A stretch of 61,045 nucleotides of DNA, filler included, from Hausera hauseri (Eukaryota): NCBI GenBank assembly GCA_046269625.1. It is 11 parts of 11 records of this genome, joined end to end, with 100 filler letters (N's around TTAATTAATTAA, not from the genome) between each part and the next. Parts side by side here need not be neighbours in the genome. Positions count along the whole stretch, not along the records: positions 56,671 to 61,045 come from JBJURY010611111.1; 10 more parts are not named here. The stretch is one strand, 5' to 3'. Below the pieces are notes generated by a model, which was not told the origin of the DNA, did no database searches, and saw only the letters and a list, made by a program, of their open reading frames with translations. Made by a program: the position numbers and the translations under genes. Every line of letters begins with the position of its first letter. The stretch's first letter is position 1. Positions 1,561 to 61,045 of the stretch are shown in pieces.

Positions 1561-2599
1561 TTTCGGTTCTAGGTGGAATATTTTCATCGACGGGGATCCA
1601 TACTTCTCCTTGTTTCCTTTATTTCATTGTTTTAATCCCTTTCACTAGTCCAAGTTCAATTAGTTTTTCAGTCTGTAAATTTATTACGATATTAGGTCAT
1701 TGTTTCAGTATATAACATAATAATACTACGTCATCGGTTAGTTAGTCCATTATGGCGAATTCGTATTGAAGGATTTAACCCATTAATTGAACTAAAGGGC
1801 TCCATTAAAATTTCGGTTTGGATTTTTGCCCGAAGGCTCCTATGCTGCCGGGATCTTATAATGATGCTGGCTGTAATTGTTTTCGTAATGTCGGCGATAT
1901 TGATACTAATTTGATAAACGATTTCTCCGATCCGGTGTCTATTAAGGCTTAGACTTCCCAATCTTCAATGGTAACTTTTGTGAAGGGTCTTCCTTCCATA
2001 ACAACTCGACACGTCCTTCGGTCGTTTAATTGAAGAAATCTTATGTCCGTTTATCGTTATCTCTGGTGACGAAATAATATTTTCGGTCAGCTGCTTCAGT
2101 TCTTCGTTAGGGTATAAGTCGTTAACTGCCATATAACTCGCATTGTTTCTAATTAATGGTTCTTGTACTATTGGGTTTTGGAATGATTTCACTCCTTGTG
2201 TTCTCCAGACTGATGATCTTGTCTCTATATTGCGAGCTATCCTTGGTGAGTACAATATTCCGTGGTCGTTTTCCGCTCGTCGTGGATTAGTGATTTGCAT
2301 TTTCTTTAATACTGCATATTGTTTTTTTCCTTCATAAGGGTCTTCATAGGTAAAGAGTTTATGACAGAATGCCGATCTATATGACACCATAGATGTTTTG
2401 TCACAATCCTCATATATCAGAGCCGCTGGCGGCATGATAAGTAAGGGTGCTCTAATTACTGAATACATTCTATGTCTATTTTATCCGAGGATTTCTTCTC
2501 CTCCCTTAGGCTCGTCATCATCGGAGTTATTTCTTCGTGTCATTGCTTTCTTAGCCTTGTGTTCTAATCGAAATATGGGTCTTGCTCGTCGTTTATAAT

Positions 2600-4944: not shown

Positions 4945-5189
4945 CTATCTAATCAATTCTCCATTATAGTTGATTTCTTCTCGGGGCTTCCTAGGCCTGC
5001 CGACTGGGCGTTTTGGTCTCGGAAGATAGGCTTACATCCCACTTAGCGGTACTAAATTCTTGTCGTATTGTTCCTTGTCTTCATCCGTCTGTAAATACTC
5101 GAAATGCATTGCTGCGTCTCGTACTCCCATGATTTGTTCTACGCATTTTTCCGTTTTAGCTTTTCGTGTGGCTTCTTTCATCTGTTCAT

Positions 5190-5415
5190 TAGCTATTGTC
5201 ACTACTATCCGACTTGTTTCGTTGGGAATAATTCCAACATCTATTAATTGTTCTAAATCATCGAGTATTATTCCTCTAAAGTAAAATCTGTAATTCAGCT
5301 CATTTGTTCCGCCATTATTTAGTAACCATTCGGTTACGTCCTTTACGTAGGAATGAGTGGTTAACTCACATTCTTTTTCTTCCATCCACTCGGATGATAT
5401 CATTAGTTTCATTAC
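5190..5415 (-). CDS. Ubiquitin-like (beta-grasp) domain at the element N-terminus
   Basis: VKDVTEWL..GG..YRFYFRGIILDD..LIDVGI..IVV resembles ubiquitin [21 protein letters not shown]; conserved in copy 2. Confidence 0.65.
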
Positions 5416-6064
5416 TTCGGGTTTAGTGTTCAAAATGTCTGCATATTTTTATCAAAATTTTCGGCACCGTGTTGTAAATTGTATTCTCACTAGATAATTT
5501 AGTCAAAGACAGAATAAGTTGTCTGAGTTTATTTTCAGTCATATTCACGTTAATTGATTCAATCAAGTTCTTCTCGGTTAACGCTGAGTCTAAGATCATC
5601 TCTACGTTGAATTTCCTGTTTTGCGGATACATTTCTATTTTCGCTAGGTATACTGGAGTTACCGGATTTCCGTCCGTTATTTCTTCTAAATAAGCATCCC
5701 ATTCTGGTTCATTCCCAATATCTGGGAGTTGTTGAGGGCCATTAGGGTCATTAGATTCATAAGTTTCAGTCCGATGCAGAATCATGGAATAACATTTCTA
5801 GCAAATTTTATTATGAAGTACCACTGTCGATTTCACCATCCTGTGACATAATATTACCGACACTATCATTCTGTGGATGTTTTGTTGTTTAGTAGACATT
5901 TAGTAAATACATTTTATTTATTTTGTTTTCTTTCTTACTTCATTTACTGTGTAACCCAAGTGATGGGTATCCTTATTACCACTGCTCTGTATATGTGTAT
6001 TGTTAGCCAGAGGTGGATTGGGTATTGATCGATTGATGCTAGAATCAATAGGAGATTTTAAAAT

Positions 6065-13900: not shown

Positions 13901-15462
13901 AATTGGTCAGACGGGAGAAGTCGGTCCTCCAGGACCTCCTGGTCCGCCGGGTCCACCGGGTTTGCGTGGCGATACTGGCAGAATGGGAAAAGAAGGACCC
14001 GTAGGTCCTCAAGGAAAAATTGGTGAACCAGGTTTTACTGGAAAACGAGGAGATCCAGGAGATAAGGGACCTAAAGGACCAGTCGGCCCTACAGGACCAC
14101 TTGGTGATGTAGGTGAACTTGGAGATCCAGGAGATGCTGGAAATGCTGGTGTTATTGGTCCTCCAGGTGATTTAGGACCACCTGGAAACGATGGCTCTAA
14201 GGGATCTCGAGGTCCTGATGGCCCTACGGTAATCTCTTCGGGCGTTGTTTGACAATTTTAAATTCAAAGATCAACTATACTAGTTGAACATAAAACTGAA
14301 ATTATAGTTTATTGTCTAGATTCAACAAGAAATTTTATCGTTCTCTAATTTACAGTTTTTCCATACGTTTACTTATTTGAAGTTATATACAAATGAGAAC
14401 AAACGATATTTAGGGCGAAGCAGGTCCCAAAGGTGATCGAGGACCAAAGGGTGTTCAAGGTCCTGATGGTCCCATTGGTCCACCGGTAAATATCTAGAGA
14501 GTTCACAACACAGATTTTATGCATATTTAAATACAAGGGTCCTCCTGGTAATCCTGGGCCGAGAGGTGACATAGGACCTAAAGGTCCAGTTGGAGGTGTT
14601 GGACAGAAAGTTCAATCGTAATTTGTATAATTGTAATATAACTACTACAGGGGTTACCTGGAAAACCAGGGGAAATAAGCACAGACTATCAGGCTATCTT
14701 TAAAAGACAACGGAAGCCTGATGACGACGGGACAAGTCAGGTATAAGTGATATTGTGTGTATATGACACACACAATCATTTATTAGATTCAAAAAGATGA
14801 AGGTAAAAAAGAACGAAAATCATCAATAGATCCAAAGGATGAGGTAATGCCATAAATTAAAAGTGGATATTTTTAGGTATTCAGGACGAAGATATTTTCG
14901 AAGCACTATCGCGTGTTTCTACGTTATTAGATTTCCTCTACAGTCCGCCCGGTACCAAAGACTATCCTGCCAGAAGTTGCGCAGATATAAAAAGAGATTA
15001 TCAAAATAAATCCGATGGTTTGGTTTTATGTGTATAATGCTAGTTCAGTACGCAATCAGGAGAATACTTCATTGATCCTAATGGAGGAAACTGGAAGGAT
15101 TCATTGAAAGTCAGCTGCAATTTTGCCAAAATGGAAACGTGTATTGAACCGGATACATCAGATTACAAATTGTCGGCATATACCAAACAGCATTCAACAT
15201 GGTTCAGTGCGCTTGCCAATATTCCAAATCAGGTAAATCGGAATATCGTACGCGTTATCGTATTGCGTCTTTTCCACAGTTCATCTACAAAATTCCAAAG
15301 GAACAATTAATTTTCCTGCAACTTAGTAGCGAAAGCGTCAGTCAGCAGATCATTCTTTTGTGTGAAGGTCTTCCTATCGTTAGCGATTTGACTACAGATG
15401 CCGCAAATAAAGACAAGAATGCTGTGGAACTTCTTGGAGATGACAGCCAGATTATTTCAGCT
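10963..15462 (+). CDS. Fibrillar collagen alpha chain (multi-exon, Gly-X-Y helix plus C-propeptide/COLFI), truncated by contig end
   Basis: Long Gly-X-Y exons split by GT-AG introns of about 40 nt (e.g. 11224-11263, 11416-11455); COLFI motifs [15 protein letters not shown] and [19 protein letters not shown]. Confidence 0.95.
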
Positions 15463-20115: not shown

Positions 20116-20920
20116 TGTAGTGCTTAGAGTGTGGTCGCACTGGAAGGGTTAGCGTGTCGATGGGAGGGCCTTCCCCGCCATGTGAATGATACCTGTAACC
20201 ATGAACTCATGTCCTATCAATACCTAAGGATGACATGACTCAGACGATTAATCACGTATTACAGTTAAAGAACGATCTGTTCCTACAACAAAACCACCAT
20301 GTCTCATACAACAACATCTTCCACTACTGCGTACAAACGAGAACAAGTATGTCACAGAAGACGGCGACACCTCAAGAGATTCAACAAAATTCGACAATCG
20401 TGAGGTAGTTTGAGAATGGCTGGTACGGTATCAGTCAATTGTATTTTCTACATTTCTCAGAAAAATCTCACTTGTGACATGACTGATACGTTGCTTAATG
20501 AGTCCAAACGATATAGAGATATTTATTTTAGTAATTTTTCATTATACAACGAACGACAATTATCACCATTTTATTTGGAATTGTTGAATACGTTTAAAAA
20601 TTGCAATGCCGATAACACGTTGATTGTAACAGATGATATGTTTGTGAATATGCCGATTGTGCCTAATGCGTTCAAATTCAATAACGTATTACTGATGTGC
20701 AAAATTCGGCACGTTAATCCAGTTGTACGTAATCAGTAAAGCCAATATTAGGTACCGAAATCGGAGTTCAGCAGTATGATGATATGCATATTGTATATAG
20801 ACTTTGTAAAGATATTAATTGAAAATACTGAATACTAGTTTTTTTTGAATTTATTATATACCTTGAATTGAATATATATTTATTATCGTTGGACTTATCT
20901 TCTTCGACTCATTAGCCGCA
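20116..20920 (+). repeat. Putative 5' LTR (TGTAGTGCTTAGAG...CGCA)
   Basis: GC-rich start similar to TGTGGTGCCTAAAG; ends in CA three nt before a PBS-like sequence. Confidence 0.55.
20470..20660 (+). pseudogene. Glycosyltransferase family 31-like fragment
   Basis: LLNESKRYRDIY...TDDMFVN resembles the GT31 motifs E...Y.DI and DDD.FVN. Confidence 0.45.
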
Positions 20921-20923
20921 AAT

Positions 20924-20935
20924 TGGTGTCAGAAG
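20924..20935 (+). promoter_or_regulatory. tRNA-Leu-type primer binding site (TGGTGTCAGAAG); second copy at 21213-21222
   Basis: Complementary to a tRNA-Leu 3' end (...CUUCUGACACCA); 18-mer CCGCAAATTGGTGTCAGA is identical at 20916 and 21205. Confidence 0.65.
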
Positions 20936-20945
20936 ATTCCATTCA

Positions 20946-21200
20946 ATGAGTTATTTGAATAAATATGTGATATTAAATGAAGAATCGTTTAAATTATTAC
21001 TCTGGGGCGGCGATGCCATTTTTCACAATGTTGAACTCCAGTACGACATTTTGGAACATTTAATGCCTTTACCAATTGGATTTAAACTTGGTCAGGTTGA
21101 TGAATTGAAAGTCTATATTCCATGGACAAAATTGGGTTCAGAAAGTGTTGTGATCACACTAAATACGGTCGAATGTATTTTAGCACTGAAATCGGATTTT
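20946..21200 (+). pseudogene. VPS13B: Captured VPS13B N-terminal (chorein-N) fragment, intronless
   Basis: MSYLNKYV..LLLWGGDAIFHNVEL..LP..FKLGQVDELKVYIPWTKLGSESVVITLNTVECIL. Confidence 0.85.
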
Positions 21201-21281
21201 TCAACCGCAAATTGGTGTCAGAGTTATCAAATTTCACGCATTCGTTTTTAGCAGTGACATTATATTTACGTAAAATCCATC

Positions 21282-21930
21282 ATGATTTTGCCATTATATA
21301 CAAGTCAGGAAAATAACAACGGTGCTACAAAATATGACACTTTACTACGATACTCATCTTTACCATTTTTACAGTCGAATCCAATCGAATTTTACACATA
21401 TGCAGAATGTATTAAAAGTTTATTTCAGTTGTCAAATGAAACAGTCAATATTTTGAGTCATTTAATTGGTTTATTTGTATTCTTAATTTTGTTGCTCAAC
21501 GATAATTTCGTTACGCTACCAAAAGCTAATACCAATTTCATGGACAGATTTGTTGTTACACTCGGCCTTATGTCATTTATTATTTGCATGTCATCATCCA
21601 TTTGTTATCATTTATTTATATGGCACAGTGAAGCGAGTAATCGGTTTTGGTTGTCGGTCGATTTGTTTGGGATATCGTTTGGGTTGACTGAATGTTTTAC
21701 TCCCGGTATTTATTTGGCATTTCATTGTTACACGAACTGGCGAATCATTTATTTGTTATTAGTATTGTTTATAATTGGAATTGCCCTTTGGATGCAGTTG
21801 CATCCTCGATACAAGTTACACAAATTTTAGAATTCGTATACTGTTCTTTGTTCTTCTGGCAACGTTTGGAGTGATTCCCACTTGCCATTGGATTTATCTG
21901 AATGATGGATTTTACAGTGGCATTGTTTCC
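21282..21930 (+). pseudogene. PAQR3: Captured PAQR3-like (progestin/adipoQ receptor) fragment, frameshifted
   Basis: CIKSLF.LSNETVNILSHLIG, SSICYHLF..HSE, DLFGIS, PGIYLAFHC, FGVIPTCHW. Confidence 0.8.
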
Positions 21931-27863: not shown

Positions 27864-27973
27864 NNNNNNNNNNNNNNNNNNNNNNNNNNNNNNNNNNNNN
27901 NNNNNNNTTAATTAATTAANNNNNNNNNNNNNNNNNNNNNNNNNNNNNNNNNNNNNNNNNNNNAAAAATAGTT

Positions 27974-28325
27974 GTGAAACAATCGATCGAATTCCCTTCC
28001 CTGCCGCTACTCGTCCAATTAGGCGATCTGTGGAGTTTCCATTCACAGACGGGGCGTTATCACGTTTTGCCTGAATCGGACGTTCATTGCATTAGTCTGG
28101 ACCCACTGAATAATTTTGCAATTATTATGGTCAGTGATGATCTGTGGAATATGATCAATGATCATCACTGTGCACAGTTACTCGCCATTTACGATCATCT
28201 CGTTGACCAAGAGAAAATTATTCCGGTGAATTATGCACCGGCTAATTTATTCGTCGATTACAATCTGTATCTGTACAGGTTACGCTATCTGAAGGCCGAT
28301 AACATAACCGTTCAGGGTATTCGTC
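27974..28325 (+). pseudogene. PPM1D: Captured PP2C phosphatase PPM1D/WIP1 C-terminal catalytic fragment
   Basis: LGDLWSF..PESDV..SLDP..IIMVSDDLWNMI..LKADNIT. Confidence 0.8.
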
Positions 28326-28999
28326 TGTCACCACCATATTTATGTGCACATGTCATCAGCGATGATTTGCCGTCGGATATCATTGCCAGCAATGTTTTGT
28401 CGAGTAAACTTAGTGATTGTACACTTTACTCGGAAACATTGTCATACTGTATGGATTTCCAATCTTACGTCGGATTGTCCCAAAATGGACACAGTTCTGA
28501 TGCTGATATTTTACAACAATTTGTCAGCTGCAATGACCGGTTTCATATTTCCGTTAGTACATGGACAGGTGATCATTGGGAACAATTGCAGTTGGCATTC
28601 ACCAATCAGGGTCTGTCTTGTTTGCCGACAATTTTCAGTAGGCTAGAGAACAGAAATAATGATGACATCAATGACAAACTGTTAGCATTTCCCTGGTGTT
28701 TGAGTTGCATCAGTTGTTTGCCATCTGTGAGTATGACCGATGAACTCAAATTGTTCCTTGTCAATCAAATTTCCTTTACTGAATTCTGGACGACATTTTA
28801 TCATACAACTGTCAAATACAGTCTGTTTATTGATGCCGACACCATAGTCTGTAATGGCACCATGCGTTCTATTCTCGTCCATAAACAATCCCTTGTACAG
28901 AATTTCCTTACCGGCTTGTCATCACATCGAATTGCACCATTCCGTCGACGGCCGACATCACCTTGTATCTCGTCTGTACATACTGTATTACAATCATTG

Positions 29000-29166
29000 A
29001 GAAAGTCGGTATCGGAGATTGTTGATCTACTTTTACGTTTGAGTATTCATATCGACGAGGAATTGAGAATCATGTCTCATCAGGCCCTTATAATTATCAT
29101 ACGAGAATGCCTGAATTGGCCATTTAAGACCGTTCAAACCTTTCTTAGTTTTATCCGTAAAGAAAC
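29000..29166 (+). pseudogene. FRY: Captured furry (FRY)-like fragment
   Basis: LLLRLSIHIDEELR..SHQAL..W...F..FIRKE resembles FRY HMDEELR..W..F..FIVRE. Confidence 0.6.
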
Positions 29167-30060
29167 ACCTCAAGCGCAAGGCTTATGGCGTGGTGTTATT
29201 TATTTCATAATAATATTCTTATTTATGCCCATTTCGAAGCGTAATTTAACGTCAACCAGTTCAGTGCAAATTGATTTTATTCAATATTTAGCACTTTTGC
29301 TTTCAATATGCTGTATGACTCTTTTTGGATTTGCGGATGATGTACTTGAATTAAAATGGCTACATAAATTGCTATTGCCGACAATCGCGTCGTTGCCTTT
29401 GTTAATTGTATACATAATTTCAAATGGGATGACTTACATTGTTGTACCGATGTTCTTTAGAACGTTTCTTGACAAAATTGTCAATATTGGTTGTCTCTAT
29501 TATAAATATGTGGCGACGTTGGCCGTTTGCTGTACGAATGCCATCAATATTTACGTTGGTATAAATGGAATTCAGGCTGGCCAGAGTTTGATTATTGCGG
29601 TTTCTATTTGCTGCATCAATTTTGTTGAATTTGTTACCGGTTCGTTTTGGCAGTATCATCTTTTCTCTGTTTTATATGATCTCGTACGTTTTCTGTTGTC
29701 TCGGACTTTTGAAATACAATTGGTATCCAGCGAAGGCGTTCGTCGATGTTGCATTTTCCTATTATTCCGGCATGACTTTTACCGTCGTTGGAATTCTAAG
29801 TCATTTCAGAAAAACACTTCTTTTCTTTATTCCTCAGTTCAAATTTTGTCTATTTTATTCCACAGTTGTTGCACTTTATTTTTTGTCCACGACATCGTCT
29901 TTCGAGATATCGTGCAACTGTTGATAAAGTTACTCAATCTGCATTGAAGTTTAAATCGGCTTCATTGGGAAAAATTGGTAAACTGTGTTTTTACGTTTTG
30001 AAGTATTTGAAACTCGTACAAATTCGTGAACTCGATGATGGCCACATAGAAATTAATAAA
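29167..30060 (+). pseudogene. DPAGT1: Captured DPAGT1 (GlcNAc-1-P transferase), N-truncated, intronless, frameshifted
   Basis: [73 protein letters not shown]. Confidence 0.92.
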
Positions 30061-33858: not shown

Positions 33859-35225
33859 TCATTTGCAATGTACAAGTAAATTGTAGTGGGACAAAAAGTC
33901 TGAACCCAATATAGGTGTGTGTACATTAGTTATTGTAAATTTCAATGTGAATGTGTTTGTGAAGTGCGGGAGAGTGAATGTCAATGTGGTGACTCCAAAA
34001 ATTTGTAAAGGTTCACCGGACGCAGTGAATAGTTGCTTTTGTGAAATGTAAATGTTGAATGTGTTGTGTTGGTGGCAGTAGAGAGATTGCTGCACCGGTT
34101 ATCGCCTTTGCTAGGACTTGCCGTGTGTCCTAGCGGCGAAATTAGTTTGTTGGAGATGGTGAGTTTCTACTACTGTTTTGTGTGAGCTTATTAGTGTTGG
34201 TCTTATTGTGTGTGCTGTAGGTACAGCCAGGTTGGCATGTGTGCTTTTGCGCCAAATTTTGAGTGGTAGATGCAAACGATATTGCTTGTTTTAAAACCAG
34301 TGGAATAAAATTTATAACCGATGCAGCATTTCTGAGCATTTTTGCCAAATTTACTATGATAATAGCAAATAAATGAGCGCGTGGGCGACGGCGACCGTCT
34401 TTGAAGTTGATTAAATACATTAGGGGAAGCAGGTCTAGAAAAACCCCGTCGAGGTAGTGTTAATGCGTTTAGTTTGTCGTTGATGTTGTTGATTGTTTTT
34501 GCTATGTTTCATTTTCTATGCGTAATTGCGCAATTTGTTGCTGCAGCACTGCATTTTGTTGTTGTTGATCTGTTGTCAATGCTGCAGAGATAGTTGGTGC
34601 TGCATGTGAGGGCAGTACTTCGTATGCCTTGTCTGCCAGTTTGGCTAGCTTGTCAAGAGCTGTGGAGTCTTCGACCACGGTAAGCAAAGCTCTTATTTGA
34701 AGGGGCACTGCATTTAAAAAATAACGACGAAGAAGCTTGAGACTGTGTTCAGAGGTTAAGCCAAGGGCGTTGAGGTGAGACAAGGATGTGCGAAGGAATT
34801 CAGAAGGCTTCTAAAGGCTCATGGCGCTGTCGTTAAAGAAACTTTGAATGATTGAATCAATTGAAGGCTCAGTAAGCTTGAGAACGGCATTATAGAGTTG
34901 TTATACGGGTCAGCGTGCTGTGGGATATCGATTATATTAGTGATTTTAGTTTTGATGGAATCTAGTAAGTGGAAAAAGAGGCTTTTGGGTTTGGCTAAAG
35001 AGTCGAGGACGTTTTGCGATTGGAGCCAAAATTGGTGAATTTTTTAAGCAATTTGAGTAGAATTTTGGCTATCGAGAAAATATTCGGTGCAGAGTAAATG
35101 AGTGAGGAGGGTATGTTCTGTAGAAATGTTGGAAGCGCTGTGTTTGTGTAAGTGAATAATGGGGAATTGTTGTTTGGTGAGTTTGTCCGTGGTGCCAGTT
35201 GTGGGCGACGAATCCATGCCACCAT
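33859..35225 (-). mobile_element. Family B gypsy gag and partial protease (degenerate)
   Basis: VPLQIRALLTVVEDSTALDKLAKLADK and PILGSDFL; homologous to 30968-32400. Confidence 0.88.
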
Positions 35226-35699
35226 GGATACGGAAATGAATATAAAGACAGATGTTGGTTGAGGAAGATTGTAGAGTTCCAGCGAGGGGTACTAGAGATC
35301 CGTTGTGTGTAAGGTAAAAATCAGAGTGGAGTAGGGTAGAAATGAAAGTATAAATGGTCGCAGTGTGTAAGTGCAATGCGGTGTGTATATGGACATGTTT
35401 ATTATTTAAGAAAAAGAAGATAGAGAAGGGAGAGGTAATGTTCCTGGGGGCGTGTTGCGGAACTGAATCGAAAGGCGCCGTCTGACCCACTGGCGCAGGG
35501 TGGGCGGCTGGGACCTCAGCCTCGCAGCGGCGGGTTCCAAATTCCGGGATAACCGACCTCCCCACCTGTATTGTTTTTCCTTCGGTTACTGTGACATTTA
35601 TCCTCAAAAGTAACACACATTCCTTTATATTAATAATGGTAAGAAACATTACCTTTTTATTAATCCACCCAATATTCATCACAATCAAATTTGTACATC

Positions 35700-36309
35700 G
35701 TCTTTCGTCTGATTTGAAATCAAATCGCAATTTTTTTGGTCCAAGGAGTGATCTCTCTTTGTTAAGGTCATTCACTTTTTCCCTCAAAGCGTAATTGAGA
35801 ACGTGTGTAGCAGTGTGATTTTGCATTATAGCACTACGTCGAGTCCCATGAACATCCAAATTCACCAAATCTCCAATTCGAAGTATGCCCTGCTGCACAT
35901 GACCAATGTGTAACATGTATCCACTAAACAGTTGCACATTTGTCACCTCAAAGTCACCAGCAAAAGCGATCAAGTTGCCTAAATCTGCCACTTGTCCACC
36001 TTGTTCTGCATAGAAGTTTGTTGAATCAAGAACGACACCGACTAACTTCTCAACGTTGGTCACTTGCTCAAGGAATGCACTTTTTATTTTAATGGCAATA
36101 ACTTTTGCCTGACACGGATTAATTTCATATTGTCCTTTGTTGTCAAATGAATAAAAGCATTTTCTACTGTCGTATGTTGATCTCATTTCTTGAGTCAGAA
36201 GGAAATTTGTATCGTGGACCTCCAACTCCAATTTGTATACATTATCACCAACAACTTGGTCACCAGAACTGACGATCTTACGGATTTCTTGGAACATTTT
36301 CATTTCCAC
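35700..36309 (-). pseudogene. AARS1: Captured alanyl-tRNA synthetase fragment
   Basis: GVVLDSTNFYAEQGGQVADLG, NHTATHVLNYALR, KLRFDF. Confidence 0.92.
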
Positions 36310-36313
36310 GTCC

Positions 36314-37601
36314 TTAACATAAAATCCTCAATTCTGAGCAGACTTTTAGTATAACCAACAAGCCTCTAGCAAATGCTTCTACACCGTATGCAATACGGCC
36401 AGAGACAGTTTCACTGTATTTTAAAAATTCCAAATGTGCAGCTAATTCAAATGCACCAGCACTCGGAACAACGCATTTGTCTTCAATAGCATTTTTAACG
36501 GCCTTTAATCCATCATTAATATCATCATTGATTTGTGTTAAAGTATGTTTATTCGGTCCGGCATAACCAAAACAATCTGGTGCTAGTTCATCAACGCAAT
36601 TTACGGCATAACCACCACTGGCTAACGCCATTCGTTCCATGTTTCTTCGCTTAGCACATCGAAGAGCTAAAATTCCTTCTTTGGCAAGCATATCCAACGA
36701 CAAAGGATCAGTTTCTTTTTCGTTTATCACAACAAAATTATATTTGGAATCTCCTTGAGCTGCAGATTCATCACAAACCTGTCTCTTCAGAGCTATAATT
36801 TTTAAACTCGTTCGTCAATAAATTGTCTTTCGGCTTAAACTAACTTTTCTTGTTCAACTGCACTCTTGTAGAAAAAACTAATGTTTATTTCAGTTTTTTC
36901 ATATTACAGCGACACAATGCAAGTTAAGATAAATGCATTTTAACCCTCTTCGGCATGTCCGGATGACGACCTCCAAGGTCGAGTACTAATCCATTGATCA
37001 ATTTATTATCCATATCTCGTTTATGTTGCATTTGCATAATTTCCACACTATGAAGATCCAGTGCAGAATCTGGATCATAAACACTCAATACAGCGTCTAC
37101 GATATGATCGCTCAACATGTTAGCCAAATCGTAGTGCAATTTCGTCTTGACGGACGTTCCAGCGACGTTAACTAAAGTTTGACGATCGAGCTTTTCGATA
37201 TCTCAAAACGGTTTCGTTATTTTCATCCTTTCTGAGACTTCAAGTGCCTTCACTTTTGCAAGATCGAAACCTTCGGTAATTAATGAAGGACGAAGTGACT
37301 GCATATATAGTCCATCATACATTAATCCATCAGCCTGCTTCAATAATTCTGCGATCATCAATACGATGCTTGTCGTTCCATCACCGGTAATATCATCTTG
37401 AGCAGTTGAAACTCGAGCAATTAAACTAGCATCTTTGGTTAATTTAATATCTCCAGCTCCAGATACCAACATCTCTAAAGTTCCTTTCGGGCCCAAATGG
37501 CTCTTAAAACATCCGAAATGCCTTTATAAGCTGTAAGATTGATATTGATTCTGTGACTTCGCATATTCAGCTTTGGGATTTAATGCAGCTATTGACACCA
37601 T
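36314..37601 (-). pseudogene. CCT6: Intronless chaperonin CCT6 (TCP-1 zeta) copy with frameshifts and internal deletions
   Basis: [66 protein letters not shown]. Confidence 0.93.
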
Positions 37602-41400: not shown

Positions 41401-44400
41401 TTTTGGGCCTTAGTGAATGTGTCGGAAGATACCATTTTGGCATCTTCTGATCTTCCAGGTCTATTTCTTCATTTGAACCGGGCTTTTTCTTGAGCGGAAT
41501 AGTCAGTCTTAATGTTTTAGCCCTACCGATATCCTCGTCGTCCTTAGCAATGACTGATTTATGGCGGTACAACAGCTCATAAAATCGACAGTAGGATTCA
41601 GGAAAGAACTTAGTTTCCACATGGGGTGGAAATTCGGCATACTTGTAAGGTTTTTCTTCAACAGTTATCGACGACACTCCATACGTATCTCCTAGAGTAG
41701 TATAAGCATGAAGCTTTACGGGTTCCGGTGCGTTGTTTGTTATCCTGATTGGTATACGACCGGAGTGTACTCTTGTCAGTACGTTACTGAGCGTTATATT
41801 TGGATTTAATGCCTCCTTTGGTTCAAAACATACCGGTTGATAGTCATCTTGTTGAACTTGAGCATAGAATATTATCTCTGTTCTCGATGGAATGTTCTCA
41901 TCTAGAGGCATCCACACCTCTCCGAGCGTTTTTTATACCTTTATTTGGTCTGGTTTCTATTAATTTTCCTGTTTGCTAGTAGATCGCTATATTTGGTAAC
42001 CTTTTCAGTAGATCACACCTTAAAACTACGTCGTTGGTTAATTGTTCCATAACTGTAAATTAATGGCGGAAAAACTGTCCAGCTATTTAAACTTCTGGGT
42101 TCCATTTAAACATGGGTATCGACATTTGGCCAAAAGCTCCTGTACTTCCTGGATCTTTTGTATACGGTGGATATAATTGTCTTTTGAGCGTTTGAGGTAT
42201 TGAATCATTTTTAATGTAAGACATCTCAGAACCTGTATCGATTAATGCATAAACTTCCCAATCTTCAATAATGATTTTGGCGAAAGATCTTCCTTCTATT
42301 ACTGTTCCAAAATAGTTTGATGCAACTTTTTGGCGTTTAGTCGCCGATATTTTATGTTCGTTGATTCGGATTTCTGGGGAGGATACTATATTTTCCGACA
42401 ATTGTCTTAATTCTCCGTTTGGATATAATTCATTGTTTTCTATTTTCAATTCTTCCGTTTCATATGTACTAATTAATGGTTCTCGATTATTAGTGTGTGG
42501 TTCCATATTCTGGAAGGTTTTTAATCTTGGATTTTCCCAAATAGTCGATCTAGTTTCTATATTCCGAGGTTCTTTGGGAAATATAATATTCTAGGGTCGT
42601 CGAGGGGCTGTCGATAGCACATTTTCCGTAGGACTCCGTAACGTTTCGTTACTTCACAAGGGTTTTCTAAGCTAATTGTCCTTTGGTAGATTTCCGTTTG
42701 ATGAGAGCTTGCTGATCGTTTGTCAGTCTTCATAGACTGGAGAAGTAGGGGGCAGCATAGGCAATAGTGCTTTAATGGCAGAATACATCTTATGTCTGTT
42801 TGTTCATGAAAATACTTCTCCTCCCTTTGGATCGTCATCATCTGAATTATTCCTTCGTATATTGGGTTTTGTAAATTTAAGCTTGTGCAAGAACATAGGC
42901 CTTCCTTTTCGTTTACGATTATAATAACCAACATGGCGTTTTACGTACGATTTCCATCTATTTTCTTCGTTTATTTTTAAGAATTTCCCAAAGGGAGTTA
43001 TGATTGCAGTCAATATTTTACATGAAAATCCGGTTAATGTAAATATTTCGTACCCATTAGTTACTGCCTAGATGACTGCCTTAATCATTTGTATTAAAAA
43101 ATATATTGATAAGAATCCGGATGCGGCTTGGCCAAAAATCAGAAATCTTCCCCAAATTTTGAAGAGTATTTATGTGGTTACTCGCTGATAATAGTTTACG
43201 CCGAGTAGTGACTCCCATTTAGCCTGATATCGAGTATCGTCTACTACTGAGGCCATAGCTCGGTTTAATTCGTGTGTTCGCTGTCGCGGTAAAGCAAGAA
43301 ATTATCTGAAGGCCTCGATTTTCTTAGGCCTATATATGCCTTTGGACAAGGTATCTTGAAATTTGTCGTCCGTAATCCCTTTTGCAAAATTTGTTACGGT
43401 TAATTTATTTGGAGCGACAGTAATACCTCCATTTGCCAAACTACCCCAATCTCTTTCACTACGCCTAAGCATGGGTTACCCTAAGCTTGCTTTACAATCT
43501 TTAAGGATGGTTGGTTGGGTATCATTATCCAATAACACTATCGTCAACGGTGTAGCTAACGTTGGAGTATTCTGATAAATAACAGGGAGTTCCTGAATGC
43601 AACGTTTTTCTTCAACGTTGATGGGCACATCCCTCTTTTCACATTCGTAAGTTAGCAGTACTTCGCCCGTGACCCCACCGAAAATTCTTTCTCTCATAGG
43701 AATTATTGGAGAAGCCAGTTCTGAGTTAGCGTATATAAGAGCTAATTTAGTCCTATTGATCTCGATGTCTAATTTACAGTCATTTGTTATCATTTTGTGA
43801 TATAATTCAGTTATTCCGACTTGCCCTTTGTAATAGAAGTAATCGTCTCTGGTTTCAGATAATCTTCAATTCGGATATTCTGCGTTTCAAACTTTTAAGT
43901 CTTCTCGTTTATTTCTGTCTCGGTGACGAAAAACGCCTCATAGTTAGTAGCGAACATCACTACTTCGCAACGAGTAATCATTTATTTCTTAATAAATTTT
44001 AGTCCATGCTGATCAGAGATTAATATAGAGGACGTAGGATGTCTGACGTATTCGCGTTTCCTTGAGTTGGTATCAGATTTATCTACATAACGCTTTCCGG
44101 TAGTTTCATTAAACTTTAATTCCTTAATTTTGATAAAGTTACAACTTCTTCCAGAAGGAGGTTCCCATATTATAACCGAACTTCTAAAAGCACAGGTTCC
44201 GTCTTGTAAATGACATTTTTGATTCTCGATATATAGTTTAGTGACACTATGGAACATAACTTTCTGTGCTCACATCTCTGATTCATAGAAATCCACGACT
44301 ACTACGTTTGCTTGTAATCCTTTTCCGGTGTCGTATTGCGCTCCGTTACAATGTCCGCTATGCATATCTAACCTTCCGACCAGTACTTTGTATGGCCTAA

Positions 44401-45923
44401 TTATCTTTCCTTGTTGCATTTCTAATTCCATATTGCCCATTGTACTCTTTCCGTATCCTTAGCCTGTTTGCAGTGCTGGTGTTCTAAGTTCATTAGGATT
44501 AGAGGATTTGTTGGTTTGTACTAACCCATGTGTACTAACCCATAGTGAAAAATGCTTCGAGATCGTCTCAGCATACATTCCATCCCATTTAATGATATCA
44601 ATTCTTGTTGTTGGTACAGAAAATAATTTTTCTCTCTCGTTTCTAGCCTGTGCGGTCTGGCATCTTCGCACGCTTCCAAATCCATTAAGGACTATCTCTG
44701 TCCCAATTTAAACTTATCACAATCATATACGGTAACAGCGCCTATGTGCTTTATTGGCATGATCAAGGTGAGTAAGCTGATTAGCCAATTTGATTCATTT
44801 TTCCGGTGGCCAACATCCGTCGTTGTCAAATTTCGTAACATATCGTCGAGTCTATTACTGGTCCATTTGTCTTCTTCCTTGTCAAATAGTCTTGACCAAT
44901 TCACTTCGCAGGGCAGCTTTCTCGCCGCTCTTCGTGCTAAGCTTATAGCTCTATTGATTTCATTCTCTCGATTAGGGTTTATTTTAACAGCTAAGTATAG
45001 TAATACTTTTCTCAATTCCTCGTTGGTGTTTTCTATCATAATCTTTTCTATTACTGATTCGTCGGTTAAGTTGCTTTTTGATAACTTAAAACGTGAACTT
45101 CGAATCATTCTGGCTGCATCGAATATTATCTTTTCTTTATTATTTAATACATCACCTCGAAGGCTTGAATAATTTACAATACGTATTAAACTCTTCATTA
45201 ACTCGCTTAATTCCTCATTGTTTGTACTGGAGGTCGGAATCGACATCTGTCTCAGTTCTCTAATTAGTTCTCCATTATAATAGACTTCTTCTCTCGTCTT
45301 TTTCGGCATACCAACTGGGCGTTTTGGCCTTGGCCCTTTTGTTGTCATTTCTCTCAGTGGTACTAAATTTATATCGTATTGTCCCTTGTCTTCATCCGAT
45401 TGTAAATATTCAAAATACATTGCAGCATCTCGGACTCCGATAATCTGTCCCACGCACTGCTCGGACCTTGCCGCACGTGCGGCTTCCTCTTTTGCCTGCT
45501 CATTAGCTATTGTTGCTATTATTCGATTTGTTTCGTCGGAAATAATCCCGACATCTATTAATTGTTCTAGATCGTCGAGTATTCTACCTCTAAAGTAAAA
45601 TCTATAATTTAACTCGTTTGTTCCGCCGTTATTTAATAACCATTCTCTTCCGTCCCTCACATAGGAATATGTAGTTAATTTACATTCTTTTTCGTCCATC
45701 TACTCGGACGATATCATTATTTTCATCGCGACCTCTGGTTTAGACCTCAAGATTTTAGCGTATTCCCTTATCAAAAGTATTGGCATCGTGCTATAAATCG
45801 TATTCTCACTAGATAATTTAGTTAATGTAGGAATAAGTTGTCTTAACTTATTTTCGGTAATGTTTACGTTAATTAGTTCGATTAAGTCACTTTCAATTAG
45901 CGCTTAATCCAGGAGCATCTCCA
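38491..45923 (-). mobile_element. Family A gypsy copy 2 (most complete): Ubl-glycoprotein-PR-RT-RH-INT-signal peptide
   Basis: ORF 44692-45699 joins the Ubl to the signal peptide and VTVYDC; ALIDTGSE at about 42235; YLDD at about 40990; RNase H and integrase motifs 40600-38860. Confidence 0.92.
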
Positions 45924-51917: not shown

Positions 51918-52322
51918 NNNNNNNNNNNNNNNNNNNNNNNNNNNNNNNNNNNNNNNNNNNNTTAATTAATTAANNNNNNNNNNNNNNNNNNNNNNNNNNN
52001 NNNNNNNNNNNNNNNNNGTTGGAACAAATTCCTCACAAAATAAATGTTCAACCATTTTCTCACATTATTAATCATCATTATATTTTGCACATCACTCTGA
52101 CTATTTGTTTTAAAAATGACCCATATTTACAGTAAAATTCGTTTCATTGTCAGTCATGTTTATACGAAACTAATTTTCGATTTTTCAAACTACAATATAT
52201 GCTGTCTCTTCGAATCACAACCAAAGTTATGAATCCTCAATGGATTTCATATCTATGCAATGAGTTTAAATGTTAGCTGTTTCATTCAACATTATGAACC
52301 AAATCAACCACTGTTCCTTCAG

Positions 52323-52568
52323 GTTCAGTGGTCTCCCCACAAAGAAACATTGCTGGTATCGGGCAGCAGTGATTTTCGTATTCATTTGTGGGATTTAGCC
52401 AAACATAATCAACCAGGAAATGGTGAATACAGTCCAGAATTAGCATTTATACACGCTGGACACATAGCTAAAGTTATCGACGTTAATTGGAATCTCAATG
52501 TGCCGTTTACAGTTGCCTCTGTATCGTACGATAACATATTACAATTATGGCAGCCATGTACCTTTTAG
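52323..52568 (+). CDS. Last exon of histone-binding WD40 protein RBBP4/7 (MSI1/p55)-like
   Basis: [49 protein letters not shown]; TTCAG acceptor and AATAAA after the stop. Confidence 0.85.
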
Positions 52569-54399: not shown

Positions 54400-56570
54400 A
54401 TTTACTTCTCGGGGAGATGATTCATATCGACTCCTGCAGCCCTAAAGCACTATAAAACTGTAGTAAATGTAGAAAATAATAGCGATAAATACTGTTTTCT
54501 TTACAGCATTTCGGCCGTATTAAAATATGACAATGTGCCCAGAAATCGTGCAAATCGTTCAAAGCAATATCGTCAGTATTTTTCTGAACTGGACTTTGAT
54601 GAAAGCTGGATGCCGATGAAACTCAAAACCATTCAGGCTTTTGAACGGCGTAATCCGACTCTGTCAATCAACGTTTTCCGGTACAACTCGGTAATAAAAA
54701 TACCGGCAAACGAAGGAATTTACAAGAATCCTCACGTGGACATAATCTATCGAAGTCGGAACCCGAATGAACGTCCAATATACCTGTTGCTGTTGGAGCA
54801 GACGGAAAAATTTCATTACGTGACCATAACACATCTGGACAGACTGCTGAACATGGACCATGACCAGTTCATCCAAAAACAAATACGCTGCAAATGGTGC
54901 CCTATATGTTTGCATGACTTCAGATCAGAATCAACACGGAAAATACACTTGGCGTTATGCAGGCGAAACATATCGGTAATAACAATGTACGTTATGCCCA
55001 TCAAAAAGGAGCTGAGATTTAGTGACTGGTCGAAAACGGACAGTACGGCATATGGGGTTTATGCCGATATTGAAGCAATTCTACCGCAGCACAACGTATA
55101 CGACTAAAAGCACATTTTAATCGCCGTCGGTATGTTGAAAGTACCAATAAAAACCACGGGACAACCGCAGTATTACATTTTCCACGGATGGAGGCAATAT
55201 TGGAAGCGGAAATCGCACCGTTGTACAGTAACAACAACACTTAGCCTCTCATTTGGACAGACGAGGACGAACGCCTTACGTTTGCAGTCACAGATAAATG
55301 CTACCTGTGCCACAAAATGTTACCATTCGATAAACAGGAACGGCTCGTACCTGATCACGACCACTTTACCGGACGATACCTGGGAGCAGAATGCAATTCA
55401 TGCAATTTAGCACATCGTGTGCGACTATTCCTGTCTGTGATATTTCATAACTTCAAGGGTTATGATTGTCACCATATTTTGAAATGGACTATTAATTGAT
55501 TTCCACAATGGGAACTGTCCATAATCCCAACGACGATGGAGAAATACCTGTCTCTGTCGGCACGCATAAATCTGTTCCAGGTGCGATTCCTTGACTTATT
55601 ACAGCTCCTCAATGAGTCTCTAGCAAAGCTAGTAAATGCCTTGCTGGATGTGCCGTTAACATTAACGCAGTTTTTAATGCATATTGCATGTAGTAAAGGC
55701 ATATTCCCATATGACTTTGCTGTATCGTACGAGCGGATTCAGACAACAGAGGAATTGCAGCCGCAGTGGCCCAATGTAACAGAAGATGAATATCGCAGAG
55801 CACAGGAATCTTGGTCAGAGCTCGGCTGCAGAAGCCTACTGTATTACATGCTCCAGTATCTGAAACTGGACATGTACTTGCTGGCCGACGTGTTTCAGAC
55901 ATTTTGGACTAAGGTGTTGGCGGAAGATAGGCTGTAGTGGCTCAACTTTTACTCCATAAAGGGAATGAGTTGGACGTCGGCTCTGATATCACTGGACCGG
56001 GACACTGAGCTGTTGCAAGACCCAGAAATGTACCGAATGTTTGATGTTGGTATTCGTGGCAGAATCACGTTTGTCAACAAGTACCACGTACCCAGTGATG
56101 ATAACACCACATCACTGCGGTACATTGATATTAATAACCTGTACGGCTGGGCGCTTTCGCAACCCTTGCCGTACTCTTTATTTGAATGGTTAACGGACAA
56201 GCAAGATCTGGAGGCAATATTGGAAAATTTACCGAGAGTAGACACGACAGAAAATAGCTCAATCGGCTACCTATGGAAGTTGATCTCGTGGTACCGGATG
56301 AGTTGCATGACGCTGTGGACCAATTACCTGTCGCAACAATCAGCCAATGTCCGTTAGGCGGCTCAAAGTTAAAGAAACTCTTCATGACGCATGAACCGAA
56401 GCTGAATTACGTGGTCAACTGGCGTCTGCTACACTTCTACATGCAGCTCGAAGTACGCGTCACACAGCTGCATCACGCAATCAAATTCAATCAGGTGCCG
56501 ATATTCAAGGCATACATTGACGGACATTAGGAAAAATAAGTCGTAGCTTGAACAAAGTTCGAAAAGGACT
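54400..56570 (+). mobile_element. Degenerate Polinton/Maverick-type protein-primed family B DNA polymerase with endonuclease-VII-like insert
   Basis: D.YCFLYSI, SINVF, VYADIEAIL (exonuclease I), DHDHFTGRYLGAECNSCNL, FHNFKGYDCH, KGIFPYD, YIDINNLYGWALSQPLP. Confidence 0.85.
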
Positions 56571-57073
56571 NNNNNNNNNNNNNNNNNNNNNNNNNNNNNN
56601 NNNNNNNNNNNNNNTTAATTAATTAANNNNNNNNNNNNNNNNNNNNNNNNNNNNNNNNNNNNNNNNNNNNAAAATGTAATTAACATCACTGCTGGTGAAA
56701 GTGGAGCGCTGTACTCACATGAACACCCTCCACCCCCCACTTCCACACTAGGTCACCAACATTGGACATTGACCTCCTTTCTTGGTGCTTAAAATGGTTG
56801 GTTAACTTCAATCTCGCCGCTGCCTCAGTCTTCACACAAATTACACAAAGATGAAAAAAGGGATCTCAAACCAAGCTTGCATAAGAGCTATCCTGAGTGA
56901 TCCTAACTACCTTTACAATTTCATTTTTTAAAAACTTACTTTGGCATGTCGAAAAACTTTGTACCTCACAGATATAAATATGGTGTGCATGTTTATCAAA
57001 CACCATAGCATTTCAGTATCATTTGTAAGCATGTTTCTTGTGAAACACCAGCTAACGTGTTTAAATGTTGCAG

Positions 57074-57159
57074 GTGCCTTGAAGCAGTATTTGAGAGAGC
57101 TGCCAGAACCTTTGCTCACTTACAAGCTATTTGATGATTTTATTCAAACTGCCACATTG
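57074..57159 (+). CDS. RhoGAP-domain exon
   Basis: GALKQYLRELPEPLLTYKLFDDFI bounded by TGCAG and GTAAGT. Confidence 0.85.
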
Positions 57160-57275
57160 TAAGTATTTAAAGTCGTGTTTGTTTTGCACCAATGTTTATG
57201 ATGATTTAAGATGCGGTGATTTACACAAAGAGATAAAACTAATTCACAACAAAATTGTTTCCAGAAATAACCTAC

Positions 57276-57514
57276 CTGCAAACGCTTTGCGGGATGGTAT
57301 TTAGAAGCCAACTCTTTAGCTCCAGTATGCCGCGGACCCCATCTATACGATTTAGCACCATTCGTTTCGTCTGCCGTCTACAATTCGATAAATTAAAACA
57401 ACAAAGAATTTAACAAACTTGATATGATTCACTGACATCTCTAATTGATTCTTCTACCATGGAATTCTGGCAAATGTTGGCACTTAAATCGCCTTCTGCA
57501 GACAAATCTGACAT
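57276..57514 (-). CDS. PEDS1: First two exons of plasmanylethanolamine desaturase TMEM189/Kua-like gene (57514-57419, 57377-57276)
   Basis: Splicing across a 41-nt GT-AG intron gives ...ICQNSMVEE...YRWGPRHTGAKELASKYHPAKRLQ, matching TMEM189 RWG.QH.GA.ELA..Y..GKRLQ. Confidence 0.75.
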
Positions 57515-58571
57515 ATTCAACTGACCTATATTTTAATAAGTTCCATAACTAATCGTTTACTATTATGTATATCTTAAAATTCTGCATAATTTTTGCAGCA
57601 AAAATGATAAGTGCAATACTAAATAATAATACTTAAATAATTAAAAAATAACTAAATAGTATCACACAAATTATATAATAAATTTCTTAAATAGAAATTC
57701 GTTATTACTTGATATCGTTAACTTGATGTAAGGTCAATACAATAAAGAGAATACAAAACTACAACAGCTACAGTTGTGACCGACATTCTTTTAACTTATT
57801 TTTTACGATATAGGTCATTTTAACTTTTTGGCAAGAGACAAAAATTAGGAAAACATCATCCATTTCATATTCTAGAAATATTTTTTCAATCGATTTTTTT
57901 TCAATAGATTCTCCTTAAAAATTACCAACATTAGTTTGAACTAAAAGCAATATATAAATAAGCACAGCTACTGAATTAATCTAGTACAATTTTCACACTA
58001 AAAAGTTCAGAAATTATGAACTTTTATACGTATATCATTAAAATCAAATTTAAAAATTAAAAATATCCGAAATATACGTAAAACTAGTTCAATGAAGTAA
58101 CAAACAAGCAAAAAACGGCATTACACAAATACTTTAAAGCTTGATACATGAATTGCTAGAACTGTCATAATTGTGAAAAAATAACAATTTTAATTTAAGT
58201 AAAATTGTTGCCAATAGTTGCTGAGGTTTCCTTATTATCTTTATCAGAATTGCTGATTTGACTTTATTAATACGTTTTTCTATTTTTTAGGTTACAAATA
58301 ACAAAGTTTTGATTAAATAACAAATCACTATAATAGTGCCATCAATTGCTATGCTAGCATTTGTCCTGAAAAATTTAATGTAACAAAGCTTAATGTTTGT
58401 AACGTTTTTTTAAAATTAGTATATTGTAAATTTATAGTTCATTTAATTTTCTAAACAATTCTAAACCTTGTAAACAAATTGGATTAAATTTATACTACTT
58501 ACAAATGTAAGTAGAATAATTGTATTGTATATACCTATTTTTAGAATAACTCAAGAAAAGATTATATGTAG

Positions 58572-58642
58572 AATGAGAATGAGCAACCAATAGGAATAGA
58601 GTACAAATATAGATGTAATATGATTGGTTGCTCATTCTCATT
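58572..58642. repeat. Perfect 20-bp inverted repeat with 31-nt loop upstream of Rep
   Basis: AATGAGAATGAGCAACCAAT (58572-58591) pairs with ATTGGTTGCTCATTCTCATT (58623-58642). Confidence 0.9.
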
Positions 58643-58792
58643 TTGTATAAGAAATTGTTCAAGTTCAATTTATAAACAAGGCCAGTGAGTAATTAATCAT
58701 AATTATTTGATGTACTTTCAAGACATAATGATGTATATGAGAAATTGTATAAATTTGAAAATAATTTATGCATTTTCTCATATTACTAAAAA

Positions 58793-60363
58793 ATGTCTCA
58801 ATCATCGTCGTCTCAATTATTAAATAGAAGCCAAAGGAATGAACAAGTATATTTTTTAATTTTTTTTTAAATTTAAATTTTAAATTAAATTTTAAAGGGA
58901 TATCGAACGAATTTCACAGTAGCCAATGCGATTAACGGGCAATATGTCAGATTGTTTCCAGATAGTCACGATAACTATGCCAGAGCCTTGCAATTCCGTT
59001 TTCCAGATCCTATTCATGATTTGGTAGTCCCACCCGAAGGTGCTACCTTCAGGCATTTTATGACTGTTATCAAGTATGACGATTCTCTAGATATTTGTAA
59101 TTACATTTCAAATTTTGTTCGTTTGTCGTTACTGTATAAATTTTACATGAAGATGGTGGAAGATACGTCTTATACCGGTTTCCATCACCTTCATTTTTTG
59201 TTTTATTTGCGCAACCCTATGCGGTTGCATCGCTTTCGCGCTGTCTTTGGTTTTAATTATGTAATTCCATTTAAGGGTGATGTTTTCGCAGTGTACAAAT
59301 ACCATCAGAAAGACATCACCCCTAATATTTTTATGTTGCAAATAGGTAATCCTCCCATCGATGTTAATAAGGAAAACACGTCTAGAAAAGCGCTTTATAG
59401 GATGTTTGATGACGCTCCCTCGGTCAGTGAGGCCATGCACATAATGAAGGAAGGTGACCGAGCGGAGTTTGTCACAAGGCATAAAATGCTTCAGTCGTAT
59501 GTTAATAGTAAATTTAGGCCCAAGATTAATATTAATGCTGATTATGTGTTTACGTTGCCTCCATTGATCTTAGGTTAGAGAGGGGTGTTAATACGGCGTT
59601 GATTTTTGGGAGTAGCAACATAGGGAAAACCTGTTACGCCATGTCTCATGGCAAGAATCCCCTGATATTGCATAGCCTCCATGACACTCCAGCTGAGTGG
59701 TCATCGGAGTTTGACTTGATTATTTTCGACGATGTCGGGTTCAGCGATGTCTGCCCAGACATTTTTCTCTCCATAGTTCAGTGCAACCACGTACACGACA
59801 ATAGGTCGATACGTGGTTTGTACAAGAGTGTCGTTGTCCCATCTTCCGTTCGTGTCATATTCACGTATAATAGCCAGTCATCCTTTTGGCCTCGAAGGAT
59901 GGATTTGAGCCAAAAAGAGGCTTGCTTGAAACGATGTCTCCTGTACGATTTAGGGGATTTTATGCTCTGTCGTACAGGGGAGAATAGAGATCGATTTCTT
60001 CAAGAGAATAGGGTGGATTTCCGCAGGTTGGCAGATGAATTCAGTGAGCCACCTGCTATTCCAATTAATATTCCTGTTAATCAGTCGTTAAGTGTGAATG
60101 TTAGTGATGGTGAGGATTACCGAGATGATTCTATGCTGTCTACACCTGTTGTAAATATGGACAATCTTGTAAATTATCGCCCTGCATATCACAGTGAAGT
60201 TTTGTCCTCTTATCATATGTGTGATGAGGGGTGTTATGTACCACCTGCGGTGGATTATCTTAATACTGGTAGTAGTGCTGGAAGTGTTAATACAGCACCG
60301 GCTTATGTCAGATACACAGATATTGATGTTGATTTCGGCATTGACAATCATATCACATTGTGA
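58793..60363 (+). CDS. CRESS-DNA-virus-like Rep (HUH endonuclease + SF3 helicase), with a 51-nt intron and one frameshift near 59565
   Basis: Motif I RHFMTV, motif II HHLHF, motif III YHQK; Walker A GSSNIGKT, Walker B IIFDD, motif C IFTYN; exon 1 (58793-58846) splices in frame to 58898. Confidence 0.85.
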
Positions 60364-60441
60364 TTGGTTGCTCAATGTGTGTGTTTGTCAATATGTTAAT
60401 ATATATTCATTTTGTATTTTCGTGTTCTTATTTATTTTGTT

Positions 60442-60831
60442 ATGGCTATTAGTCCCGGCTTTCTATCTAATCTATTGCGTTTAAATTATTCGGTGGATTC
60501 AATGTGCGACCATCTTCGAAATATTGAGTCTCGGGGTAACCTTCCTCCGGAAGAACATACCGATTTGCAACATGTGGTTCGATTGGCAGTGTACAATTTC
60601 GAAATGATGAAAAGAATATTATGCCAATATGACAAGCTCAGTGGGGAATACGGGATTGATGATCCGCTGCATTTGTGCCGCATCCTGAAATCTTATGTCG
60701 ACAATGAGGAAGTGCGGGATATCTATAATAGTCCCAATGTTTTAGCGGAGGATATATGCGACAATCTTCACCGGAATGAGATATTGTGTAGTCAGTCGCC
60801 CTTCCCCGTGTGGATGGATTGTTACAGATGA
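60442..60831 (+). CDS. Orphan ORF (about 129 aa) downstream of Rep
   Basis: Open frame from ATG 60442, same GC-richer composition as Rep, followed by AATAAA signals. Confidence 0.5.
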   Translation: MAISPGFLSNLLRLNYSVDSMCDHLRNIESRGNLPPEEHTDLQHVVRLAVYNFEMMKRILCQYDKLSGEYGIDDPLHLCRILKSYVDNEEVRDIYNSPNVLAEDICDNLHRNEILCSQSPFPVWMDCYR

Positions 60832-61045
60832 ATGGCTCGAAACTGATGAATAATTGTATATATGTTAAATAAAATTTTTCACCTTCTTACATTTGTTTTA
60901 CGACCTTTGTTAGTAAAAAGACAAGACATATATTTTTCATAATAAAACACATATATTTGTACAACATCACACATATTGGCTTATAAGCCATTCTATACAA
61001 TAATTTCCACACAACATAGTCAATGGATTTTGATACATAATGTTA

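Follow-up and report, generated by a model that had tools for sequence, protein, structure and literature searches.

Multi-copy Rep insertions in invertebrates have been published already: about 60 Rep copies are reported for the salmon louse and Varroa (PMC3198968), in a study that as early as 2011 proposed Rep-driven spread of endogenous copies, and 20 for the isopod Armadillidium (PMC4231630). The former source also names two planarian elements, the extrachromosomal PEVE and the integrated PIVE; planarian virus-like elements are likewise mentioned in 10.1101/551184. The HUH transposon groups of eukaryotes, Helitrons and Replitrons, are treated in PMC10288648, and CRESSV6, the P. pulchra plasmids and further Rep groups have been defined in PMC6668415.

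The locus described here lies in a stretch of 61,045 nucleotides (the window), in which N-TTAATTAATTAA-N linkers connect 11 contigs, the last of them (56671-61045) being the Rep contig. Its frames at 58898-59563 and 59569-60363 are the two halves of one CRESS-type Rep. The best explanation, to which we assign a probability of roughly one half, is that this is a broken member of an integrated CRESS Rep family, deposited repeatedly by a divergent ssDNA virus or virus-like replicon in what is likely a flatworm; it is the family membership of this Rep that is new here. The features of the contig are as follows:

56672..56933, no strand: contig tip, probably DNA of another organism
57075..57158, plus strand: host RhoGAP exon (Pfam PF00620, E 1e-8)
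57270..57515, minus strand: host exons, presumably of a TMEM189-like N-terminus, divergent from the Rep
58565..58649, no strand: large hairpin with 27-nt arms and a 31-nt loop, left edge of the multi-copy zone
58615..58623, minus strand: TCATATTAC at the loop edge of the large hairpin, predicted nick site
58621..58634, plus strand: TGATTGGTTGCTCA, reversed CCAAT-like box, copy 1, upstream of the Rep
58735..58786, plus strand: second hairpin with 21-nt arms and a 7-nt loop (z -5.0), ending in TCATATTAC at 58778-58786
58793..58846, plus strand: predicted Rep exon 1 of 18 codons, ATG at 58793
58847..58897, plus strand: predicted 51-nt GT-AG intron, 96% AT, with in-frame stops
58898..59563, plus strand: N-terminal half of the Rep, HUH endonuclease with a single catalytic tyrosine and helical oligomerisation region
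59560..59570, plus strand: reading-frame break, peculiar to the present copy or its assembly
59569..60363, plus strand: C-terminal half of the Rep, SF3 helicase (to about 59960) and acidic tail of about 120 aa
60361..60374, plus strand: CCAAT-like box, copy 2, overlapping the Rep stop, upstream of ORF3
60442..60831, plus strand: ORF3, 129 aa, acidic
60846..60893, plus strand: weak direct repeat of the second hairpin (34/48), 2109 nt downstream of it
60860..61045, no strand: very abundant repeat with a 14-bp palindrome at 60977

The Rep shows the order HUH nuclease, oligomerisation helices, SF3 helicase. As the original prediction had it, all HUH and SF3 motifs are recognisable: motif I (FMTV, 59057), motif II (HLH, 59186) and motif III (YxxK, 59300) are followed by Walker A (59608), Walker B (59719), motif C (59857) and the arginine finger (59923), and all catalytic motifs are intact and in order. 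Its further claim, that the two domains are one Rep split by a frame break, is borne out by a profile of 119 relatives (found with the helicase alone and selected by length), on which ORF1 (57 bits, positions 20-188) and ORF2 (110 bits, positions 193-312) occupy adjoining stretches. A phmmer search with the helicase against 1.84 billion proteins recovered 256 matches at E<=0.001; among the 150 matches listed, identity is 27-40%, leaving aside one low-complexity false match (P0003) that was dropped. In the ESM Atlas both halves fall with Cressdnaviricota clusters (0.96), which together with the helicase identity of at most 40% upholds the view of a divergent CRESS-type Rep. When the profile of relatives was compared with the PDB, it matched Reps of circo-, nano-, redondo-, smaco- and geminivirus type, with no parvovirus Rep among the 33 matches, and for the helicase half E1/NS1 ranked 24th/30 in the ESM Atlas. 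The suggested check of an affinity to parvoviral NS1 thus came out negative, and an NS1-type Rep (Parvoviridae/PIVE) is ruled out. A model of ORF1 built from the alignment (pLDDT 74.5) resembles the Rep nucleases of circovirus, pMV158, redondovirus and geminivirus, as well as circovirus and genomovirus Rep folds; a single-sequence fold was poor (pLDDT 36). No match was returned by Pfam for the Rep, the Gemini_AL1 domains included, by a PDB sequence search with each half alone, by a word-indexed protein search with the helicase, or by searches of plasmid and phage sequences. Viral contigs searched with the window's own peptides or the hairpin arm likewise gave no match, and neither the protein nor the viral-contig searches yielded a close exogenous virus.

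The unclassified CRESS viruses and cruciviruses with GKT.FA.AHF and DG.VFDD helicase motifs have the domain order, catalytic motifs, F..P linker and arginine finger in common with the window Rep, at a helicase identity of 24-40%. This helicase type is CRESSV6-like. Unlike these viruses, the window Rep has an N-terminal extension, a predicted intron and a long acidic tail, is multi-copy in a host run, and has no capsid in its contig. The endogenous Reps of salmon louse, Varroa and Armadillidium occur, as far as these accounts describe them, in tens per genome, with one lineage per host and many copies broken, and the same holds here, whereas in the window element the hairpins are retained, as are a predicted intron and another ORF; the word 'intron' does not appear in the main text of PMC3198968. 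PEVE and PIVE have probably the same host phylum, Rep-like genes, and both free and integrated forms; the PIVE protein and the small PEVE segment are grouped with parvoviruses (PMC3198968), whereas the window Rep is CRESS-like. Helitrons and Replitrons, as characterised in PMC10288648, resemble the window element in being HUH elements of eukaryotes whose ends carry hairpins or short repeats. A Helitron has two tyrosines and an SF1B (PIF1) helicase and a Replitron one tyrosine, an HUQ motif and no helicase, whereas the window Rep combines one tyrosine with HUH and an SF3 helicase; the single tyrosine and SF3 helicase rule out membership of the former, and the HUH motif II and SF3 helicase that of the latter.

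Near the N-terminus, the ATG at 58793, the 18-codon exon and the 51-nt GT-AG segment are present as the original prediction described them. The segment exists in the DNA, an identical contig spanning 58593-58913, and a diverged sibling contig keeps 45 letters up to its contig joint at 58806. There is no methionine between the predicted acceptor and motif I, so that the Rep would need the intron to have a start codon ahead of that motif. Judged by its sequence, the segment is plausible as a Rep intron, and it agrees with host introns in size and AT content: the collagen gene of the window (11300-14250), which is long, has few small introns, of about 40, 41, 45 and 220 nt, in keeping with the description of the Rep intron as host-sized. 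Similar-sized introns are predicted in the Reps of related elements (L054, 56 nt; L057, 48 nt; L069, 45 nt; L071, 80 nt), and the Rep intron is therefore no sign of domestication.

Two sibling contigs, 99% and about 81% alike, run across the frame break unbroken, so that it is specific to the present copy or its assembly. In the 99%-alike sibling, of 612 nt, the five letter differences, like the difference in length, all lie within 43 nt at the break; because of this clustering, copies may have been joined into a mosaic there, either in nature or by the assembly. In genomoviruses an intron in the middle of the Rep separates nuclease from helicase. Here too there are splice-like sites on either side of the break, but a second, central intron is ruled out both by the F..P linker, which is conserved in relatives, and by the two siblings that cross unbroken; given also that no Gemini_AL1 domain was matched in Pfam, Geminiviridae and Genomoviridae are rejected as a home for this Rep.

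The copy-number check bore out a multi-copy family: the public run X1, which may be the source sample, has 316 contigs on 58200-60870, of which 180 are less than 90% alike, with up to 19 variants per site. The Rep-copy pieces listed have depths of 5-16, as against 3-9 for host pieces. Summed contig depth, which is not copy number, rises from 1.9 in the bin 58380-58469 through 10.5 (58470-58559) to 105 (58560-58649); the multi-copy zone thus starts at the large hairpin, and it includes ORF3 and runs into the abundant repeat at the contig end. Among the 40 best-supported of 198 differences, after removal of 6 non-coding ones and 2 in ORF3, 21 of 32 coding differences are silent (4/8 in ORF1, 17/24 in ORF2) against an expectation of 21-28% (p 1.6e-4). 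In one sibling the length of the Rep tail is changed by 45 nt, which keeps the reading frame, and other siblings are frameshifted near 59837-59846. Many diverged copies at host-like depth make it likely that the Rep copies are integrated in the host genome. The original prediction had reached a chromosomal location from the neighbouring gene, on which the present case does not rest: no contig bridges host gene and element, though near-identical contigs cover most bins and, on the host side, extend up to 58340. The contig joints listed include none running back, and circles are still compatible with the contig data.

The large hairpin (z -7.7 and -8.0; 0/200 shuffles) is a candidate replication origin. 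The CRESS origin nonamer has the consensus NANTATTAC, to which TCATATTAC conforms at 8/9 positions, including the core TATTAC, in an unusually long loop of 31 nt; TCATATTAC occurs three times in the window against 0.89 expected, a count reached in 5/100 shuffles. The TATA-like site (TATAAA) at 58748 and the Inr-like TCATATT at 58778 of the original prediction are both present, but they sit within the arms of the second, 21-bp hairpin, which it had overlooked, and the pair could equally well be part of this hairpin ending in the nick-site-like TCATATTAC. A third, weaker hairpin (58485-58524, z -3.1) lies just left of the multi-copy edge. The CCAAT-like 14-mer has two exact copies in the window against 0.01 expected. 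ORF3, into which diverged sibling contigs extend (joints 60421-60619 and 60522-60748), had no homologue in the searches run, the word-indexed one covering lengths of 70-226 aa, and showed capsid likeness in none of them. The direct repeat at 60846-60893 was not matched by chance (0/2000; 0/60 in a post hoc test), and gapped alignment of left and right found no significant wider similarity (29 and 74 of 300). Long terminal inverted repeats were not found in the element as seen, its right end lying beyond the contig. PEVE has a circovirus-like Rep and inverted repeats. Towards the contig end the summed depth of the right-end repeat climbs from about 1,600 to some 515,000, host pieces standing at 3-9, and its abundance reaches back to about 60811, the end of ORF3. 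The repeat was found nowhere else in the window and not in JGI metagenomes; four viral contigs share a 17-mer of it. Rfam gave sub-threshold miRNA-hairpin matches only.

We found 48 related contigs in IMG/VR. In most viral relatives a large ORF directly follows the Rep, and among the 28 in which the largest other ORFs were tested, 11 have a Pfam capsid (seven S-domain, three gemini/STNV-like, one circo-like). One relative, L054 (5699 nt; also L042), is linear, with terminal inverted repeats of 243 bp and further large ORFs, and no Pfam capsid was found in it; its Rep is split by the predicted 56-nt intron, upstream of which the match to motif I is weak. Three close relatives of its Rep, all from one metagenome (L057, L069, L071), lie in host-type DNA. 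Those of L069 and L071 are frameshifted, and that of L057 (1719-3560) sits between pieces of an Ulp1-bearing non-LTR element, in a contig ending in three 109-bp repeats with TGATTGGTT. Introns are predicted directly before motif I in these three, L057 and L069 having an alternative ATG. The four Reps share with the window Rep the helicase type and a predicted small intron near the N-terminus, whereas L054 differs from the window element in its terminal inverted repeats and large extra ORFs, and the intron positions are unlike. Against this subclade the nuclease half of the window Rep scores 50 bits, compared with 23-43 in 12 controls, and the helicase half 101, compared with 88-106. A quick helicase-only tree places it with the subclade and two full-Rep trees outside it (with long-branch warnings; bootstrap 45 in one of them), on a very long branch of its own (2.5-3.2 changes per site); the trees were built from relatives only. 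Elsewhere among the contigs, L075 (58 kb; repeated gene families, large-DNA-virus-like by eye) carries a helicase-only Rep fragment at 4845-5666, and L079 (6 kb) a CRESS-type Rep at 1704-4559 beside an ORF that looks PIF1-helicase-like by eye.

By analogy with CRESS Reps, the host would transcribe the Rep from the CCAAT- and TATA-like sites and splice it; the protein would bind the hairpin, use its tyrosine to nick TATT/AC and, as an SF3 ring, carry out the unwinding for rolling-circle copying of the element by host polymerase. From there, copies may enter chromosomes through Rep-made or repair joins, and selection would have acted during the element's replication. If the break is real, the present copy would move only with Rep supplied by another copy. 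A capsid, if there is one, would lie beyond the contig or on a separate segment.

Integration of a virus or virus-like replicon is backed by the silent excess, by the capsids in 11 of 28 IMG/VR relatives and by the arthropod and planarian precedents. It is weighed down by the lack of a close exogenous virus among the searches, of a contig bridging host gene and element, and of a capsid. The contig ends about 680 bp after the Rep, and its roughly 2.5 kb of element sequence shows no capsid gene, although in most viral relatives a large ORF comes directly after the Rep; as originally predicted, none is recognisable, there being no minus-strand ORF above 82 aa after the Rep and no capsid-like ORF in the contig. 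The imperfect nonamer and unusually long loop also count against it, and the shared left hairpin and a right repeat reaching the end of ORF3 are easier to understand as a mobile element with fixed ends. Such an element would be a capsid-less rolling-circle transposon with a Y1 HUH and SF3 Rep. Its autonomous copies, each made up of hairpins, Rep and ORF3 and measuring about 2.5 kb, would drive their own movement as well as that of a vast non-autonomous family with the same right end. This is possible, though on the whole we do not expect it. The left edge is sharp at the large hairpin; the second hairpin is weakly repeated, in direct orientation, 2109 nt on; ORF3 is retained in diverged siblings; the depth gradient from 1,600 to 515,000 extends back to about 60811; related Reps without capsid lie in host-type DNA (L057 in the Ulp1 element, L069 and L071 frameshifted); and Rep-driven spread has been proposed before (PMC3198968). 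Yet no right terminus is seen in the contig. The abundant repeat could itself be a SINE, MITE or satellite without relation to the element, with the contig breaking off at it. It was found nowhere else in the window, its left end is not shared with the left hairpin of the element (where depth is about 100), and the wider left-right similarity is not significant.

That the Rep belongs to a free virus population, episomal or infecting, mis-joined to host sequence, the break being an assembly mosaic, we consider unlikely. The foreign-looking left tip of the contig, the thin cover at 58380-58469 (depth 1.9) and the crowding of the 612-nt sibling's differences at the break would all fit, and L054 is an instance of such a Rep on a linear element with terminal inverted repeats. 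Dozens of variants, 80-99% alike and in the listed cases host-like in depth, are however unlike one infection, other siblings are frameshifted near 59837-59846, and the host side lies under near-identical contigs up to 58340. A single domesticated host gene with a gained intron, one of the options originally offered, is very improbable: the host-type intron, promoter-like motifs and silent-biased differences agree with it, whereas there are many copies, down to 80% identity, the present one broken, origin-like hairpins are retained, and small introns are predicted in the related, non-domesticated L054, L057, L069 and L071 as well.

At the least, the finding links a deep, unnamed CRESS Rep lineage with an animal, likely a flatworm, as its host, and shows CRESS-type Reps to be able to carry host-type introns and yet stay mobile. 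More doubtful is the proposal that, next to Helitrons and Replitrons, eukaryotes have a third kind of HUH transposon: a Y1 and SF3 rolling-circle element of flatworms that bears an intron but no capsid and drives a non-autonomous family of tens of thousands of copies through its right end. The literature searched, with most subscription journals and Repbase outside it, described no SF3-Rep transposon for which the ends were defined and non-autonomous partners known. If the transposon reading were true, a virus would have turned directly into a transposon while retaining its helicase, as PMC3198968 had suggested in 2011.

The minus-strand host exons at 57270-57515, presumably TMEM189-like, had no match in a Pfam search. 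The tip at 56672-56933 is 99% identical to 1.9-kb contigs in runs X2-X4, from three other organisms, is almost uncovered in run X1 and has a CpG o/e of 0.29; it is likely a mis-join with another animal's DNA. The left 262 bp of the contig thus indicate that the assembly is capable of mis-joins. Runs X2-X4 contribute small shares only and give no habitat evidence.

The host is an animal, judging by collagen and LTR elements in the window. A CCT6 copy (from the gene set 20916-21827 to 52233-52565) falls in a clade adjoining trematodes (SH-aLRT 100, and 98 for the group that includes both), in a tree of one decayed gene without nematodes or other fast lineages; because of this grouping, the host is likely a non-trematode flatworm. 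Host genes appear as decayed or fragmentary copies at 20916-21827, 27920-29944, 35047-36814 and 52233-52565; CCT6 and a WD40 protein were tested and the rest judged by eye. A decayed, Maverick-like type-B DNA polymerase lies at 54421-56570 (Pfam DNA_pol_B_2, E 2e-5), and two LTR retroelements, at 3298-4944 and 43479-45699, carry a fusion glycoprotein (Pfam Monjiviricetes_fusion, E 2e-31 in the first).
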